64,000 nt of DNA from Myxococcales bacterium. GTDB lineage: Bacteria; Myxococcota_A; Polyangia; Haliangiales; Haliangiaceae. Of the stretch, positions 33,094-40,203 are shown piece after piece. The DNA is taken from the NCBI GenBank assembly GCA_016707895.1, contig JADJGV010000034.1, forward strand, positions 501,625 through 565,624. Direction: 5' to 3'. Positions within the stretch are counted from its first letter, which is position 1. Every line of letters starts with the position of its first letter. The translations under genes were made by a program, and so were the position numbers. The notes under the pieces were generated by a model, which did no database searches, had not been told where the DNA came from, and saw only the letters and a program-made list of their open reading frames with translations.

Positions 33094-34056
33094 TCAGCGC
33101 ATGAACGTGCGCCGCACCAGGTCGACCGCGCGTGGCCCGAGGGTCTCGCCGCGCCACGCCAGCGCGCGCGACACCACCAGCGCCTTGTCGGCCGGGTTGA
33201 TCCGCGGCCGATCGGCGAACAGGCGCGGGCCGGCCGCGGCGATCTTGTCGAGGATGCGCATGCCGCCGTGCCACATCAGCGCCAGCTCGACCGCGAGGTC
33301 GGGGCCGACCACGTCGACCAGCGGGCGGGCGCGCTCGAACAGCGCCCGGGTGCGCGCCACCTCGTAGCGGACCAGCGCGCCGACCTGCGGCGTCGTGCGC
33401 CGGGCCTCGACGTCGGCCTCGCTGACGCCGAAGTGGCGCAGGTCCTCCTGCGGCACGTAGATCCGGCCCCGGGCGAGGTCGGCCGGCATGTCCTGGATCA
33501 GCCGCGCGAACGCCAGCCCGGTCGCCAGGTCGGCGGCGAACGCGTGCAGCTCGGGGGCGCGGTAGCCGCCGATGTACAACAGCAGGTGCCCGACCGGCTC
33601 GGCGGCCTCGCGGGTGTAGGCGCGCAGGTCGTTCCAGGTCGGGTAGCGCAGCGTCTCGAGATCGGTCCGGAACCCGGACACCAGCTTGACGAACTCGGTG
33701 ATCGGCAGGGCCAGCGACTTGATCGTCGCGGCCAGCGCGACGAACACCGGGTGCTCGGGCGGCTTGCCGAAGTAGGTCTGGTGCAGCAGCTCCTCCCAGC
33801 GATCGAGCTCGCGCGCGCGCCGGCCCTCGTAGGCCGGCTCGTCGGCGAAGTCGTCGGCGACCCGCGCGAACGCGAAGATCGCGAAGATGTGCTGGCGCAG
33901 GTTCGAGCGCGCGAAGATCGACGCCACCGGGAAGTTGTGGTGGTGGGCGCGGCACAGCGCCTCGCAGTAGCGGTAACAGGCGCCGACCTCGAGCGAGGGC
34001 GGCAGCGGGACGGCTTGGGCGGTGGCGCGGCGGTCGCCGATGCGGTGGATCACGGA
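33094..34056 (-). CDS. Squalene/phytoene synthase family protein (HpnD/HpnC- or CrtB-like)
   Basis: YRYCEALCRAHHHNF, ARVADDFADE and the DxxxD-type motifs of trans-isoprenyl diphosphate synthase head-to-head enzymes. Confidence 0.7.
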   Translation of the reverse strand, partial: SVIHRIGDRRATAQAVPLPPSLEVGACYRYCEALCRAHHHNFPVASIFARSNLRQHIFAIFAFARVADDFADEPAYEGRRARELDRWEELLHQTYFGKPPEHPVFVALAATIKSLALPITEFVKLVSGFRTDLETLRYPTWNDLRAYTREAAEPVGHLLLYIGGYRAPELHAFAADLATGLAFARLIQDMPADLARGRIYVPQEDLRHFGVSEADVEARRTTPQVGALVRYEVARTRALFERARPLVDVVGPDLAVELALMWHGGMRILDKIAAAGPRLFADRPRINPADKALVVSRALAWRGETLGPRAVDLVRRTFMR

Positions 34057-35345
34057 GCGGGCTCCTGGGGGGACGACGCCAACGTAGCACCCTTCAACCC
34101 GGCCAGGACCTCGGCGGCGGTGGTGGGGCGCAGGTCGCCCGCCGCCACCAGCTCGGCCGCCACCGCGTCGATCAGGTCGCCCTCGGCGCCGGCGGCGCGC
34201 GCGACCGCGCGGGCGTGCAGCGCCATGTGGCCGCGCTGGATGCCGTCGGTGGCCAGCGCCCGCAGCGCGGCCAGGTTGCAGGCCAGGCCGGCGGCGCCGG
34301 CCAAAGACGCCAGCCGCGGGGCGGCGCTGACGCCGGCCAGCTTGAGCGCGGCCCGGGCGCCGCGGTGGACGTGGAGCGCGCCGCCGACGGTGCCGACCGC
34401 CAGCGGCAGCTCGAGGCGGCCGCTGAGGTGGCCGCCGTCGACCCGCCAGGTGGCCAGCGGCGCGTAGCGGCCGTCGCGGGCGGCCCAGGCGTGGGCGCCG
34501 GCCTCGACCGCGCGCCAGTCCTGGCCGGTGGCGACCAGCACGGCGTCGACGCCGTTCATGATGCCCTTGTTGTGGGTGGCGGCGCGGTAGCGGTCGTGCT
34601 CGGCGAAGCGCGACGCCGCGGCCACCCCGGCCGCGACCGCCGCGCCGTCGGTGCGGGCGTCGGCCAGCGCCGCCAGCGGCACCGCGCAGGTCACCGTGAC
34701 GGTGCGCTGGTCGGTCAGGTTGGTGAGGATGCGCAGCCCGACCACGCCGTCGACCAGCGCCGCGACCTCGGGCGCCAGCAGCTCGCACAGCGTGTTGACC
34801 AGGTTGGCGCCCATCGCGTCCTTGCAGTCGACGTCGACGTGCACGACGACGACGCCGCCGTCGACGCCGCCGTCGGCGAGCATCCGCGCGGTCACCGCCA
34901 GCGGGCCGCCGCCGCGGGCCACCAGCCGCGGCGTCAGCGCTCGGGCCCGGGCCACCAGCGCCGGGGCCTCGCGCTCGATCCGGGCCGCGGCGGCGCCGGC
35001 GTCGGCCAGCTGCACCAGCTGGATCTGGCCGGTGACGATGGCGGGCGCGACCACCGTGGTGAAGCCGCCGCCGGCGCGGGCCATGCGCGCGGCGTTGGAC
35101 GCCGCCGCGACGATCGACGGCTCCTCGACCGCCATCGGCACCAGCGCGTCGACGCCGTCGACGGTGAAGTTGGTCGCCACCGCCAGCGGCAGCGCGTAGC
35201 GGCCGACGACGTTCTCGATCATCCCGGCGGCGTCGGCCAGCGAGATGCCGCCGTCGAGGTCGGCGAGGTCGACGCCGGCGTCGGCGAGGTGCTGGCGGCG
35301 CTCGTCGACAGACTTGCCGTGGAAGCCGGGCAGGCGGGAGGTCAC
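34050..35345 (-). CDS. Hydroxymethylglutaryl-CoA reductase
   Basis: Catalytic motifs DAMGANLVNT and GTVGG. GTG start taken at VTSRLPGF; the upstream part of ORF 34050..35417 overlaps the preceding gene. Confidence 0.8.
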   Translation of the reverse strand: MTSRLPGFHGKSVDERRQHLADAGVDLADLDGGISLADAAGMIENVVGRYALPLAVATNFTVDGVDALVPMAVEEPSIVAAASNAARMARAGGGFTTVVAPAIVTGQIQLVQLADAGAAAARIEREAPALVARARALTPRLVARGGGPLAVTARMLADGGVDGGVVVVHVDVDCKDAMGANLVNTLCELLAPEVAALVDGVVGLRILTNLTDQRTVTVTCAVPLAALADARTDGAAVAAGVAAASRFAEHDRYRAATHNKGIMNGVDAVLVATGQDWRAVEAGAHAWAARDGRYAPLATWRVDGGHLSGRLELPLAVGTVGGALHVHRGARAALKLAGVSAAPRLASLAGAAGLACNLAALRALATDGIQRGHMALHARAVARAAGAEGDLIDAVAAELVAAGDLRPTTAAEVLAGLKGATLASSPQEPAP

Positions 35346-35356
35346 GCGGCCGGACC

Positions 35357-39268: not shown

Positions 39269-39321
39269 CGCCGGTTTCTAGCACGCTGCCGCCCCGCCGG
39301 CGGCCGGGCGCCGGCCGCGCG

Positions 39322-40203
39322 TCAATACACCATCAACAGCACCAGCGCGCCGAACGCCAGGCCGTTGAGCAAGAACAGCGGGTCGCGCAGCATCGCGTCG
39401 GTGGGGCTGTCCTCGCCGGCCTTGCGCAGCGCCAGGTCGGCGAAGCGCAGGATGCCGACGGCGCCGAGCGGCGCGGTCCACACCAGGTTGCGGGTGCCGA
39501 AGAAGCGGATGGTGTGCGCGTCGAGCGTGTACGCGACGTACGCGCCGATCGTCGCCAGCGCCAGCACGATCATCGACCACTGCACCGCCGTCGGGTGGTA
39601 GCCGGCCAGCGCCGCGCGGGTGGTGCCGACGTCGCGGCCGGCCAGCTTGGCGCGGGCCAGCTCGTGGGCGCGCTTGCCCAGCCCCAGGAACATCGCCAGC
39701 AGCCCGGTGCACGCCAGCAGCCACGGCGACGGCGCGACGCCGATGGCCGCGCCGCCGGCCATGACCCGCAGGATGAACCCGGCGGCGATCAAGATGACGT
39801 CGACGAACGCCACCTGCTTGAGCTTGAAGCTGTAGGCCAGGTTCTGCGCGAGGTACACGCCGGCCCACACCCCCGCCATCGGCGCCAGCGCGAACGCGGT
39901 GCCGAGGCCGGCCAGCGCCAGCACCGCCGCGACCACCAGCGCCGCGCGCTCGCCGAGGTGCCCCGCGGCGATCGGCCGCTTGCACTTGGTCGGGTGCGCG
40001 CGATCGGCGGCCACGTCGAGCACGTCGTTGAACGCGTAGACCGCGCCGGCCAGGGCGCAGAACGCCGCCACCGCCAGCGCGGCGCGCAGCGCGTAGTGCC
40101 CGTCCGCGAGGTGCTTGGCGAACACCAGCGGCGCGGCCACGAACACGTTCTTCACCCACTGGTGTGGGCGGAGCGTCTTGAGGACTGCGCGGGCCGGGCT
40201 CAT
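39322..40203 (-). CDS. UbiA-family integral membrane prenyltransferase
   Basis: NDVLDVAADRAHPTKCKRPIAAG (NDxxDxxxD ... KxxRP) and multiple TM helices. Confidence 0.75.
   Translation of the reverse strand: MSPARAVLKTLRPHQWVKNVFVAAPLVFAKHLADGHYALRAALAVAAFCALAGAVYAFNDVLDVAADRAHPTKCKRPIAAGHLGERAALVVAAVLALAGLGTAFALAPMAGVWAGVYLAQNLAYSFKLKQVAFVDVILIAAGFILRVMAGGAAIGVAPSPWLLACTGLLAMFLGLGKRAHELARAKLAGRDVGTTRAALAGYHPTAVQWSMIVLALATIGAYVAYTLDAHTIRFFGTRNLVWTAPLGAVGILRFADLALRKAGEDSPTDAMLRDPLFLLNGLAFGALVLLMVY

Follow-up and report, generated by a model that had tools for sequence, protein, structure and literature searches.

The three-enzyme HpnCDE squalene pathway, as attributed to Pan et al. 2015 by later papers (PMC8237579, PMC7839719), is known from Zymomonas mobilis and Rhodopseudomonas palustris and also occurs in Nannocystis (PMC10152446); HpnC without HpnD is described as infrequent (PMC7306690). 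Prenyl units are made in myxobacteria by the mevalonate (MVA) route (PMC8237579, PMC10152446). M. xanthus and Stigmatella aurantiaca use this route with mvaS placed away from the other MVA genes, and in M. xanthus mvaS belongs to the separate AIB operon aibR-aibA-aibB-aibC-mvaS (mxan_4263-4267; PMC5389471). Among UbiA-superfamily enzymes, the phosphoribosyltransferase Rv3806c of M. tuberculosis acts on an isoprenoid lipid acceptor (PMC10994848), and known PPPRS systems have a flippase and a GT-C partner (PMC11127046). The TatT-type (TPAT) TRAP transporters, such as T. pallidum Tp0956/Tp0957 and the system of Enhygromyxa salina TatT, have a four-component TatT-DctP-DctQ-DctM architecture, and the ligands of TatT-family proteins are long-chain fatty acids or sterols (PMC11713862, PMC10942540).

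The window analysed here, a 64,000-nucleotide stretch of myxobacterial DNA, represents uncultured Kofleriaceae, in contrast to M. xanthus and S. aurantiaca, which are Cystobacterineae. Seven co-directional genes fill positions 33094-40203 of its minus strand (Table 1), in the transcription order UbiA-superfamily gene, IDI-2, MK, MVD, PMK-like kinase, class II HMGR and SQS/PSY-family synthase. Third-position GC frame analysis and public gene calls on identical contigs agree on this layout, and the gene order, strand, tight or overlapping junctions and coordinates in an earlier note on this DNA proved exact; the MK call is the same in public assemblies. The sequence contains four 4-bp overlaps (IDI2/MK, MK/MVD, MVD/PMK and HMGR/SQS, the last reading GTGA) and gaps of 53 bp between UbiA and IDI2 and 11 bp between PMK and HMGR, and no terminator-like hairpin was found inside the seven-gene block. 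HMGR matches the PDB entries 6dio/1qax with E about 1e-103. The only soft gene call is the divergent GHMP kinase, which has 3k17 Lin0012 as its top PDB match (E 2e-13) with mevalonate kinases next, and for which weak similarity and pathway logic suggest the phosphomevalonate kinase role.

Table 1. Features of the window, with positions counted from its first nucleotide.
Feature	Position	Strand	Details
UbiA-superfamily gene, polyprenyl-phosphate 5-phosphoribosyltransferase type (DPPR synthase / PPPRS-like), putative	39322-40203	-	293 aa; Pfam UbiA 72 bits; NCBIfam NF008977 230.8 bits
Type 2 isopentenyl-diphosphate isomerase (IDI-2)	38180-39268	-	362 aa; TIGR02151 362.5 bits, cutoff 281
Mevalonate kinase (MK)	37260-38183	-	307 aa; TIGR00549 199.4 bits, cutoff 163
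Diphosphomevalonate decarboxylase (MVD)	36271-37263	-	330 aa; TIGR01240 250.6 bits, cutoff 171; Pfam MVD-like_N 186 bits
Divergent GHMP kinase at phosphomevalonate kinase position	35357-36274	-	305 aa; TIGR01220 94.7 bits, below cutoff 165.7
Class II HMG-CoA reductase (HMGR)	34050-35345	-	431 aa; TIGR00532 335.8 bits, cutoff 260; Pfam HMG-CoA_red 311 bits
HpnC-lineage head-to-head (SQS/PSY-family) synthase	33094-34053	-	319 aa; Pfam PF00494 203 bits; start overlaps HMGR stop by 4 bp
ORF87, conserved protein	24130-24393	+	87 aa; 60% identical to L177 ORF87 (tblastn E 4e-31)
IS4-family insertion sequence	31562-33025	-	1,464 bp; transposase ORF 31573-32892/33018; NF033590 242 bits
TatT-type (TPAT) TRAP transporter genes	40273-45233	-	Directly upstream of the UbiA-like gene; conserved UbiA partners
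tatT	44340-45233	-	Pfam TAtT 193 bits
dctP	43318-44340	-	Pfam DctP 112 bits
dctQ	42152-42724	-	Pfam DctQ 57 bits
dctM	40273-42150	-	Pfam DctM 222 bits

None of the 44 gene models of the window matches HMG-CoA synthase, HpnD, HpnE, SHC or OSC, which bears out the earlier note's description of an operon without HMG-CoA synthase. Because mvaS of M. xanthus lies in a separate AIB operon, the absence of mvaS here appears by analogy to be the known arrangement and no special feature. Streptomyces MVA clusters attached to terpenoid antibiotic clusters are similarly compact, contain IDI-2 and HMGR and are joined to a gene for a terpenoid-forming enzyme. These clusters include HMG-CoA synthase, supplement a MEP pathway and are dedicated to a secondary metabolite, whereas the operon in the window lacks HMG-CoA synthase and is probably the primary route.

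The SQS-like protein scores 242.4 bits against the NCBIfam model for HpnC (TIGR03464), just below the cutoff of 250.45, compared with 169.8 bits for HpnD and 108 bits or less for CrtB. In the PDB it matches HpnC (4hd1) at E 4e-51, CrtB at 1e-19 and CrtM at 3e-14. Profile and structure comparisons thus settle on HpnC the choice between HpnC/HpnD and CrtB/CrtM that the earlier note had posed, CrtB and CrtM being rejected as poor matches, and the gene is, as judged from its sequence, an orthologue of the HpnC of the Z. mobilis and R. palustris pathway. Since HpnC is the best match, over CrtB and CrtM, a squalene-type C30 route is favoured over a carotenoid C40 route. Unlike in the HpnCDE system, hpnC in the window is embedded in an MVA operon rather than a hopanoid (hpn/shc) cluster, hpnE is unlinked, and hpnD is missing in the window's clade. 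Translational coupling of hpnC to HMGR is not described in the cited accounts of the M. xanthus and S. aurantiaca pathway.

The nearest relatives of the operon are Kofleriaceae/Haliangiales MAGs, in keeping with its attribution to myxobacteria. In loci anchored on UbiA or HpnD homologues, with frequencies conditional on those anchors, the SQS-like gene directly follows HMGR in 21/21 loci, mostly through a 4-bp overlap, and the UbiA-like gene follows the TRAP permease gene dctM on the same strand in 55/67. The proposed coupling of a head-to-head synthase to the MVA operon therefore holds. By comparison, the link between the UbiA-like gene and the MVA genes is unreliable: they are neighbours in 29/50 loci, IDI2 directly adjoins the UbiA-like gene in only 18/50, and MVA genes are absent from more than 9 kb downstream of it in 13/34. 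The arrangement is inverted in two loci (L013, L022), and unrelated genes separate the two parts in three others (L089, L091, L095). The MVA-HpnC genes also occur without a preceding UbiA gene, with IDI-2 first (L087, L094, L178), and TRAP-UbiA occurs without the MVA genes (L090). The block combines two evolutionary units; in Kofleriaceae/Haliangiales (Myxococcota) they commonly, though not invariably, lie side by side. The first is a conserved six-gene unit, IDI2-MK-MVD-PMK-HMGR-HpnC, whose predicted products cover all steps from HMG-CoA to IPP/DMAPP, the PMK step through the PMK-like kinase, plus an HpnC-lineage synthase. The second is the UbiA-superfamily gene, which closes a TatT-DctP-DctQ-DctM TRAP cluster. 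In L177, 12 genes for TRAP, UbiA, MVA and HpnCD are spaced about 13 bp apart, so UbiA may once have been transcribed with the others as a single ancestral unit.

The UbiA-like protein falls just under the cutoff of 234 bits for NF008977 (decaprenyl-phosphate phosphoribosyltransferase) and matches Rv3806c (PDB 8j8j) at E 1.9e-34. Of the 13 named Rv3806c contacts with PRPP, Mg and polyprenyl phosphate, 12 are conserved or conservatively replaced, mostly at invariant positions of family alignment A1. R22, K28, Y70, N73, D77, K87, R90, Y138, K143 and K191 are identical, Q135 is replaced by N and Y157 by F, a variant that occurs in mycobacteria too, and K208 is unconserved (A197, beside an invariant R196). 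This residue signature identifies the gene as a probable polyprenyl-phosphate phosphoribosyltransferase, with Rv3806c and the pentofuranose systems as its closest family and structure match (PMC10994848, PMC11127046). The aromatic prenyltransferase envisaged in the earlier note was rejected, as the residues are those of a DPPR synthase, phosphoribose-specific contacts among them, and none of the NCBIfam models for 4-hydroxybenzoate, homogentisate, chlorophyll and heme O transferases gives the protein more than 31 bits. The enzyme would most likely make a polyprenyl-phosphoribose glycan donor, and would relate to the MVA operon solely through its isoprenoid lipid acceptor.

These observations bear on the proposal that UbiA, the MVA genes and the SQS-like gene form one dedicated pathway to a specialised lipid, for instance a hopanoid or carotenoid precursor or a prenylated aromatic. 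The seven genes share one direction, have only short gaps between them and enclose no terminator-like site, which fits that proposal, as do the 13-16 bp between UbiA and IDI2 in L177 and L092 and the fact that UbiA neighbours the MVA unit in most loci. However, the frequently broken, inverted or absent UbiA-IDI2 adjacency, the existence of the MVA-HpnC unit without UbiA, the phosphoribosyltransferase residues of the UbiA-like protein and the poor CrtB and CrtM matches all speak against it, and myxobacteria rely on MVA as their general source of prenyl units (PMC8237579). Synteny and residue mapping largely refute a dedicated pathway, which we regard as very improbable. Judged by the earlier note's own test, the UbiA half of the idea fails: the gene is a member of another, known enzyme family that often happens to lie next to the MVA genes. 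Because myxobacteria use MVA as their prenyl-unit route, a housekeeping operon is more likely.

The TRAP block, which is also present in L089-L092 and L177, shares the four-component architecture of the TPAT systems, but its TatT has only distant similarity to characterised ones (3u64 Tp0956, E 5e-9; 8g52, E 5e-5). DctM is extended at its C-terminus by about 190 aa that have no Pfam match. A phosphoribosyltransferase gene after dctM is not described in the cited accounts of characterised TPAT systems, and the tie to a TatT-type TRAP transporter likewise sets the UbiA-like gene apart from Rv3806c and the three-component pentofuranose glycosylation systems. No Rv3807c-type phosphatase, DprE1/E2 epimerase, MATE flippase or GT-C glycosyltransferase was found near it. 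The TatT-TRAP genes, phosphoribosyltransferase, MVA genes, HpnC(D) and ORF87 could represent an ancestral super-operon whose members are functionally linked in taking up, making or trafficking hydrophobic components of the envelope. The compact L177 arrangement, the macro-synteny that recurs across the family, and the lipid ligands of TatT proteins and lipid acceptor of the phosphoribosyltransferase would suit such a role. Nonetheless, synteny is most often broken where the two units join, the flippase and GT-C partner of known PPPRS systems are both missing nearby, the window TatT is only distant kin of the characterised ones, and macro-synteny inside one family can be purely historical. We consider a functional super-operon quite unlikely.

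Sister lineages retain the canonical hpnC-hpnD pair. In basal relatives the operon ends in hpnC-hpnD-ORF87, with hpnD directly after hpnC in all 11 contexts (L031, L056, L073, L093-L096, L102, L176-L178) and ORF87 after hpnD wherever the context extends far enough (L093-L095, L176-L178); the partner scores 227-234 bits, below the HpnD cutoff of 278.6, with HpnD as its best match. The window HpnC belongs to a derived monophyletic clade without adjacent hpnD, with 96/100 bootstrap support in a tree built by neighbour-joining only. In L071, ORF87 follows hpnC with hpnD cleanly missing between them, while in the window ORF87, which has no Pfam match, lies about 8.7 kb from the operon beside rarA (22768-24084). 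No relocated hpnD copy for the orphan clade was found in the window or in a metagenome scan, in which 73 more distant HpnDs with visible context all sit beside their own canonical HpnC. HpnD-type homologues gave 262 matches (about 80 at 50% identity or above) and orphan-type HpnC 2,768 (with each of the top 120 at 73% or above), a comparison that is only rough as the databases were the same but the queries differed. Neither the paired nor the orphan operons have an HpnE-like amine oxidase nearby, and even the ancestral end product is therefore uncertain. Outside the operon, 68 bp downstream of the hpnC stop, an IS4 element with the terminal inverted repeat CTGACCATTG and a 10-bp target duplication GTCCTGGGGG occupies a site that is polymorphic in near-identical contigs (empty in L001, L002 and L007, occupied in L004).

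The orphan clade also carries an active-site signature at HpnC positions 60, 184 and 49, which align with CrtM Y41, N168 and P30. At position 60, all 73 other HpnCs have Y and all 30 orphans have F. At position 184, N is found throughout the 62 canonical HpnCs, K, N, T or S in paired ones and R in every one of the 30 orphans. At position 49, 69 of the 73 others have P, whereas all 30 orphans have R. The window protein has F60, R49, R184 and A181. Published accounts count CrtM Y41, Q165 and N168 among the residues of the active site or of Mg coordination (PMC13304436, PMC10635275), and the equivalents of Q165 and N168, invariant in the 62 canonical HpnCs, are A and R in the window's clade. Replacement of the N168 equivalent by Arg takes away a presumed Mg ligand, and the chemistry may thus be altered rather than retained. 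Together with the loss of hpnD and the score slightly under the HpnC cutoff, the replaced Asn and Gln, which line the Mg site in CrtM, might indicate that the protein is decaying or no longer catalytic, a leftover from a squalene pathway since lost. This is highly improbable, however, as the orphan is more highly conserved than any other protein of the operon (median identity 71%, against 46-49% for the kinases, with the PMK-like kinase lowest at 46%), is full length in 30/30 loci and has kept its translational coupling to HMGR. D67/D68/D71, D188/D192, R64 and Y146 are intact in the window, and both Asp-rich motifs, R64 and Y146 are invariant across the clade.

Alternatively, the gene may encode an ordinary hydroxysqualene synthase, with hpnD and hpnE elsewhere in the genome and squalene passing to a hopanoid or sterol. 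HpnC is clearly the top family match, the sister-lineage orthologues pass the HpnC cutoff and adjoin an HpnD-like gene, and myxobacteria with HpnCDE are reported. Moreover, the paired operons likewise have no linked hpnE, which makes scattered pathway genes the usual state here. The search for HpnD covered contigs and loci, and an unlinked hpnD, sqs, hpnE, shc or osc, or a MEP pathway, may lie elsewhere in orphan-clade genomes. On the other hand, the myxobacterial HpnD type adjoins a paired-type hpnC in 11/11 contexts and never stands alone, its homologues are, by the rough count above, far scarcer than those of orphan-type HpnC, HpnC-without-HpnD is described as infrequent, and the three pocket substitutions are fixed exactly in the clade without hpnD. 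We consider this alternative rather unlikely.

The explanation we prefer, to which we assign a probability of roughly 60%, is that of two units, with a general-supply MVA operon ending in an HpnC orphaned by the loss of hpnD. HMG-CoA would come from an unlinked mvaS, as in M. xanthus, and the operon would serve the cell's general isoprenoid supply and not a dedicated pathway. The ancestral operon probably ended in hpnC-hpnD-ORF87 and made a hydroxysqualene-type C30 product from FPP, with HpnD converting two FPP to presqualene-PP and HpnC converting presqualene-PP to hydroxysqualene. In the window's lineage hpnD would then have been deleted, ORF87 displaced and the pocket changes fixed in HpnC. 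The orphan enzyme is predicted still to catalyse diphosphate ionisation and cyclopropylcarbinyl rearrangement to a 1'-1 linked C30 product. It may now also carry out the first condensation itself or receive presqualene-PP from an unlinked enzyme, two options to which we give nearly equal odds, each somewhat less than even. Overall, the operon is mostly ordinary and its orphan-HpnC variant modestly interesting: if the orphan HpnC is catalytic, triterpenoid output in these organisms would be coupled to mevalonate flux.

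The window has a G+C content of ~75%, which makes raw lists of open reading frames useless, and gene models were therefore set by third-position GC frame analysis. This approach resolved seven consecutive minus-strand genes (table below) encoding proteins of 293, 362, 307, 330, 305, 431 and 319 amino acids, the same lengths as in independent calls on public contigs with identical proteins. The gene order and coordinates in an earlier note on this DNA hold in every particular, with the PMK call as the sole soft point. HMGR, MK, MVD and IDI-2 all score above the curated NCBIfam cutoffs. 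For the GHMP kinase in the PMK position, the best NCBIfam match, TIGR01220, reaches 94.7 bits against a cutoff of 165.7, and the best PDB match is followed by mevalonate kinases; its PMK role is assigned by position and pathway logic. With this assignment, the block has the gene content of a classical (eukaryote-type) mevalonate pathway leading from HMG-CoA through mevalonate to IPP/DMAPP. Four of the junctions in the block are 4-bp start/stop overlaps and the remainder measure 11 bp and 53 bp. A promoter and terminator scan detected no terminator-like hairpins within the block and no sigma-70-like promoters, as expected at such a GC content, and is uninformative on transcription units. Neither Rfam nor tRNA searches gave a match in the window.

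Features of the window, with the matches that name the operon proteins
Feature	Position	Strand	Match
Alpha-2-macroglobulin-like protein (MG2, A2M bait region and A2M domains)	1-3510	-	
Big_5 Ig-like protein	4101-5318	-	
Three ClpB/Hsp104-like AAA+ genes	7043-15884	+	
Signalling genes, first flank	22116-31465		
ORF87	24130-24393	+	
IS4-family element	31562-33025		
Squalene/phytoene-synthase-family protein (SQS-like)	33094-34053	-	PF00494, 203 bits
Class II HMG-CoA reductase (HMGR)	34050-35345	-	TIGR00532, 336 bits; PDB 6dio/1qax, E about 1e-103
GHMP kinase, PMK position	35357-36274	-	TIGR01220, 95 bits, below cutoff; PDB 3k17, E 2e-13
Diphosphomevalonate decarboxylase (MVD)	36271-37263	-	TIGR01240, 251 bits
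Mevalonate kinase (MK)	37260-38183	-	TIGR00549, 199 bits
Type 2 IPP isomerase (IDI-2)	38180-39268	-	TIGR02151, 362 bits
UbiA-superfamily protein	39322-40203	-	Pfam UbiA, 72 bits
TRAP transporter genes	40273-45233	-	TAtT, DctP, DctQ, DctM (Pfam)
Gap between dctP and dctQ	42725-43317		
Terminator-like hairpin	43213-43196		
Signalling genes, second flank	45425-50879		
Two FadL/TodX-family genes	55696-58286	+	Toluene_X (Pfam), weak

HMG-CoA synthase is missing from the operon, as the earlier note had observed, and Pfam and NCBIfam searches found neither it nor a thiolase among all 44 gene models of the 64-kb window. The lack of HMG-CoA synthase is a state known for myxobacteria, with mvaS of M. 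xanthus located in the unlinked AIB operon (PMC5389471), and by analogy HMG-CoA would be supplied here by an unlinked MvaS. Because myxobacteria make prenyl units through the mevalonate (MVA) pathway (PMC8237579), we infer that this organism makes its isoprenoids primarily through the operon. The HMGR most closely resembles class II enzymes that depend on NAD, namely those from Delftia, Burkholderia and Pseudomonas mevalonii (PDB 6dio, 6p7k, 1qax), and the curated model that names it is titled 'degradative', while the operon context is biosynthetic. Homology therefore does not fix the cofactor preference or direction of the enzyme. Foreign origin of the operon was considered, given its GC content of 76-80% against 67-68% for the neighboring TRAP transporter genes, but GC3 is ~0.95-1.0 in both, and the difference is explained by the amino-acid composition of membrane proteins.

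The first gene of the block encodes the UbiA-superfamily protein. The best NCBIfam models for this product are all titled 'decaprenyl-phosphate phosphoribosyltransferase', with NF008977 at 230.8 bits (cutoff 234), whereas the NCBIfam models for aromatic and heme/chlorophyll prenyltransferases score ≤60 bits, those for 4-hydroxybenzoate, homogentisate, chlorophyll and heme O transferases ≤31 bits, TIGR01474 ubiA_proteo 26.6 bits (cutoff 275), and homogentisate phytyltransferase 20.8 bits, with no match to MenA. Its only relatives in the PDB are structures of M. tuberculosis Rv3806c (8j8j, E 1.9e-34). We mapped the residue roles described for Rv3806c (PMC10994848) onto the window protein through an HMMER alignment. 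The Mg2+ ligands N73 and D77 correspond to N59 and D63, the pyrophosphate contacts R22, K87, R90, K143 and Y138 to R12, K73, R76, K129 and Y124, and the decaprenyl phosphate contact K191 to K177. The ribose contact Q135 aligns with N121, and the 5'-phosphate contacts K28, Y70 and Y157 align with K18, Y56 and F143, a Y157F variant that occurs in mycobacteria too (PMC10994848). K208 alone is lost, with A197 in its place and an invariant R196 beside it. The mapped contact positions are nearly all invariant in an 18-sequence family alignment. With all of the Rv3806c contact residues but K208 kept or conservatively replaced, the residue signature predicts that the UbiA-like gene encodes a polyprenyl-phosphate phosphoribosyltransferase and not an aromatic prenyltransferase. 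The annotation '4-hydroxybenzoate prenyltransferase', whether automated or made by eye, is wrong for this family, a correction that matters in practice for annotation. Mycobacterial Rv3806c and three-component O-antigen systems (PMC11127046) have partner genes that this gene does not have: phosphatase, epimerase, flippase and GT-C transferase genes were not found in the window or in the related loci inspected. Unlike in the PPPRS systems of that study (PMC11127046), the conserved partner of the window gene is a TatT-type TRAP transporter.

Four consecutive minus-strand genes upstream of the block encode the T, P, Q and M components of a TPAT-type TRAP transporter together. We know of no rationale for pairing such a transporter with a polyprenyl-phosphate phosphoribosyltransferase-like gene and found no description of the linkage in the literature searched; the conserved link is worth attention. 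Characterized TatT proteins bind long-chain fatty acids or sterols (PMC11713862, PMC10942540), and the TatT protein of the window is only distantly related to them. The DctM protein has 625 residues, with ~190 C-terminal residues beyond the DctM domain that match no family. The gap of ~590 bp between dctP and dctQ holds an opposite-strand 58-aa ORF, also called in L001 and L003 (L-numbers denote related loci in public assemblies and metagenomes), as well as the one strong terminator-like hairpin in this region. Given this gap and hairpin, the TRAP cluster may be expressed as two transcripts.

To compare gene order, 80 species-level genome loci were anchored on the UbiA-like protein and the window proteins were mapped onto them; the frequencies below therefore hold for loci chosen by that anchor. 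HMGR is immediately followed by the SQS-like gene in 21/21 loci, and in 55 of 67 a co-directional UbiA gene lies no more than 1.2 kb after DctM. UbiA leads directly into IDI-2 in 18/50 loci, with IDI-2 anywhere downstream on the same strand in 29/50, and in 13 of 34 loci the sequence downstream of UbiA lacks MVA genes over a stretch of more than 9 kb. The UbiA and MVA genes lie on opposite strands in L013 and L022, unrelated genes sit between UbiA and IDI-2 in L089, L091 and L095, and in L090 the TRAP-UbiA genes are followed by an unrelated Isc cluster. Conversely, precomputed Pfam annotation of L087 places IDI2-MK-MVD-PMK-HMGR-SQS behind a LysR gene with neither UbiA nor TRAP genes, and L094 and L178 likewise have an MVA-SQS unit without them. 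The complete series DctP-DctQ-DctM-UbiA-IDI2-MK-MVD-PMK-HMGR-HpnC-HpnD-ORF87 is present in L177, with gaps of ~13 bp around UbiA. The simplest reading is that the ancestral arrangement was contiguous and that TRAP-UbiA and IDI2...HpnC are each held together, with the junction between them free to break. Other variants include a DUF6683 gene between MK and MVD in L089 (15762-16478), three minus-strand genes, one of them a radical-SAM gene, that interrupt the MVA genes in L092 (12877-17651), where an opposite-strand gene occupies the PMK position, and a seemingly split hpnC in L031 (18462-19422), where tblastn covers only the N-terminal half and a separate 138-aa ORF follows. Homologous operons are auto-annotated in hundreds of public MAG contigs. 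For both accessory proteins, the closest homologs are found in MAGs assigned to Kofleriaceae, Haliangiales or Myxococcales, Kofleriaceae being placed in the Haliangiales, Polyangia, Myxococcota. Among species-level genomes, 'Myxococcales bacterium new MAG-81' (L007) is nearest, at 98% identity.

Downstream of the block are an IS4-family element and a convergent response-regulator/GGDEF/EAL gene. The element is 1,464 bp long, is inserted 68 bp past the hpnC stop, and ends in inverted repeats (CTGACCATTG), with 10 bp of the target (GTCCTGGGGG) duplicated. Its flanks are 100% identical to the empty-site contigs L001, L002 and L007, and L004 carries the element, so the insertion is recent and polymorphic. 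Genes for c-di-GMP and two-component signalling densely flank the operon. One flank encodes PilZ, HDOD and FIST proteins, a hybrid histidine kinase with Hpt, and a REC-PAS-GGDEF-EAL protein; the other encodes a trio of SBP_bac_5, HAMP-GAF kinase and REC-GGDEF proteins that L089-L092 also carry upstream of their TRAP genes, in divergent orientation. Farther out, the ClpB/Hsp104-like genes (1069, 1122 and 756 aa) form an unusual triplet of paralogs, each with AAA_2 and ClpB_D2-small domains and with overlapping or abutting stops and starts. The alpha-2-macroglobulin-like gene runs off the start of the window and adjoins the Big_5 gene, and the tandem genes for FadL/TodX-family outer-membrane channels for hydrophobic compounds (437 and 426 aa) are followed by three genes without a family match.

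The last gene of the block belongs to the HpnC lineage. Its product scores 242.4 bits with the HpnC model TIGR03464, narrowly missing the cutoff of 250.45, compared with 170 bits for HpnD and ≤108 for CrtB; the orthologs in L056 and L073 pass the cutoff (259-264 bits) and other members of its clade reach 247. In the PDB, 4hd1, 'squalene synthase HpnC', is the best match (E 4e-51), ahead of CrtB (1e-19) and CrtM (3e-14), and in a neighbor-joining tree the protein clusters with HpnC, not HpnD. Profile scores, PDB matches and tree thus agree on an HpnC ortholog, as judged by sequence, which answers the question of HpnC/HpnD versus CrtB/CrtM posed in the earlier note.

Relatives of this operon retain a partner for HpnC. 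In three genome loci the first SQS/PSY gene passes the HpnC cutoff (259-264 bits) and is followed by a second, divergent SQS/PSY gene that is HpnD-like, at 227-234 bits (cutoff 278.6). From a homology search with the HpnD-like protein we inspected six contexts together with metagenome loci L096 and L102, and, with the three genome loci included, found hpnD directly after hpnC at the end of the MVA operon in 11/11 cases, followed, where the contig continues, by a conserved ORF of 87-88 aa (ORF87). A further 73 more distant HpnDs from the metagenome scan each adjoin a canonical HpnC of their own, with 27-43% identity to that of the window. Homologs of the HpnD-like protein were far scarcer than those of the window HpnC, a rough comparison made with different queries in a word-indexed search. 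The homology search, the inspected contigs and the metagenome scan showed no myxobacterial-type hpnD standing by itself. The window has no second SQS/PSY gene, and no locus of the window's clade with room downstream has an adjacent hpnD. HpnCs at least 67% identical to that of the window never occur with an adjacent hpnD, and those at most 65% identical do, except in L071. In the neighbor-joining tree, which is distance-based and rooted on HpnD, the hpnD-less HpnCs (hereafter orphan) form one derived clade nested within the paired myxobacterial ones that have an adjacent hpnD, with a bootstrap of 96/100. Independently, ORF87 comes directly after hpnC in L071, which looks like a clean deletion of hpnD. 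ORF87, which has the motif LFMNRLHLLRLTEVVR and no Pfam match, is also found at L177:11013-11276 and in L093-L095, L176 and L178. It is the last operon gene (hpnC-hpnD-ORF87) in hpnD-containing lineages and is inverted or displaced next to rarA in the hpnD-less clade, including the window, where it lies beside rarA ~8.7 kb from hpnC. The gene hpnE, for the hydroxysqualene reductase of the FAD-dependent amine-oxidase family, is absent from the window and from ≤10 kb around the related operons inspected, being unlinked in every lineage inspected, and neither shc nor osc is among the window's 44 gene models.

The loss of hpnD coincides with changes in the HpnC pocket. We aligned HpnCs of the canonical (62), paired myxobacterial (11) and orphan (30) groups, numbered them through a PDB alignment to S. 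aureus CrtM, and transferred residue roles by alignment, from CrtM here as from Rv3806c for the UbiA-like protein. Four positions distinguish the orphan clade from canonical HpnCs (table below), and CrtM Y41, Q165 and N168 are active-site or Mg-coordination residues (PMC13304436, PMC10635275, PMC8944557).

Pocket positions in the three groups of HpnC
Position	CrtM residue	Canonical	Paired	Orphan
49	P30	P 58/62	P 11/11	R 30/30
60	Y41	Y 62/62	Y 11/11	F 30/30
181	Q165	Q 62/62	A/T/S	A 30/30
184	N168	N 62/62	K/N/T/S	R 30/30

The Asp-rich motifs (D67/D68/D71 and D188/D192), R64 and the catalytic tyrosine Y146 (CrtM Y129) are invariant in 103/103 HpnCs. Across 22 loci, median identity to the window is 71% for HpnC, 70% for IDI-2, 65% for MVD, 63% for HMGR, 60% for UbiA, 49% for MK and 46% for PMK. 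As the best-conserved protein of the block, HpnC appears from its sequence to be strongly constrained rather than decaying, and its pocket to have been remodelled in step with the loss of hpnD. We considered the extra arginines as a sign of two diphosphate sites and hence self-sufficiency, but CrtM, a two-substrate enzyme, has P30 and N168 at these positions.

From the comparative data, the ancestral operon end hpnC-hpnD-ORF87 would have led from FPP to a hydroxysqualene-type C30 compound. The orphan HpnC probably retains catalysis of the second-half-reaction type and gives a C30 1'-1 product. That it also condenses FPP itself is a suggestion to which we give somewhat less than even odds. Reliance of the enzyme on an unlinked source of presqualene-PP is about as likely, and a different substrate or product takes the rest of the probability. 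On a bolder reading, to which we assign a probability of about 0.3, this HpnC-lineage synthase of a large clade of uncultured Kofleriaceae, translationally coupled to HMGR and changed by Y41F, N168R and P30R, would act after the loss of HpnD as a self-sufficient head-to-head triterpene synthase or yield a different C30 product. If true, bacteria would have reverted for a second time, independently of Sqs, from the split HpnC/HpnD system to a one-enzyme route.

HpnC, HpnD and HpnE do not always co-occur, alternative roles are possible, and occurrence patterns other than HpnD alone are infrequent (PMC7306690); the orphan clade appears to be such an infrequent case of HpnC without HpnD. In the literature searched we found no description of an MVA operon that ends in hpnC, alone or together with hpnD, or of an hpnD-less clade with a distinct pocket signature. 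Every component is from a known family, and apart from the orphan HpnC and the reassignment of the UbiA-like gene, the operon is probably ordinary housekeeping metabolism. Were the orphan HpnC self-sufficient, it would offer a natural experiment on splitting and re-merging the half-reactions of squalene synthesis, and would change how 'HpnC' annotations are read in surveys of triterpenoid potential. Myxobacteria are prominent in debates on a bacterial ancestry for the sterol and mevalonate biochemistry of eukaryotes, and their squalene route, Sqs or HpnCDE, is part of that picture. The operon adds a third configuration from a little-studied myxobacterial family, in which hpnC lies in the MVA operon, initially beside hpnD and afterwards alone, and the active site changes at the loss.
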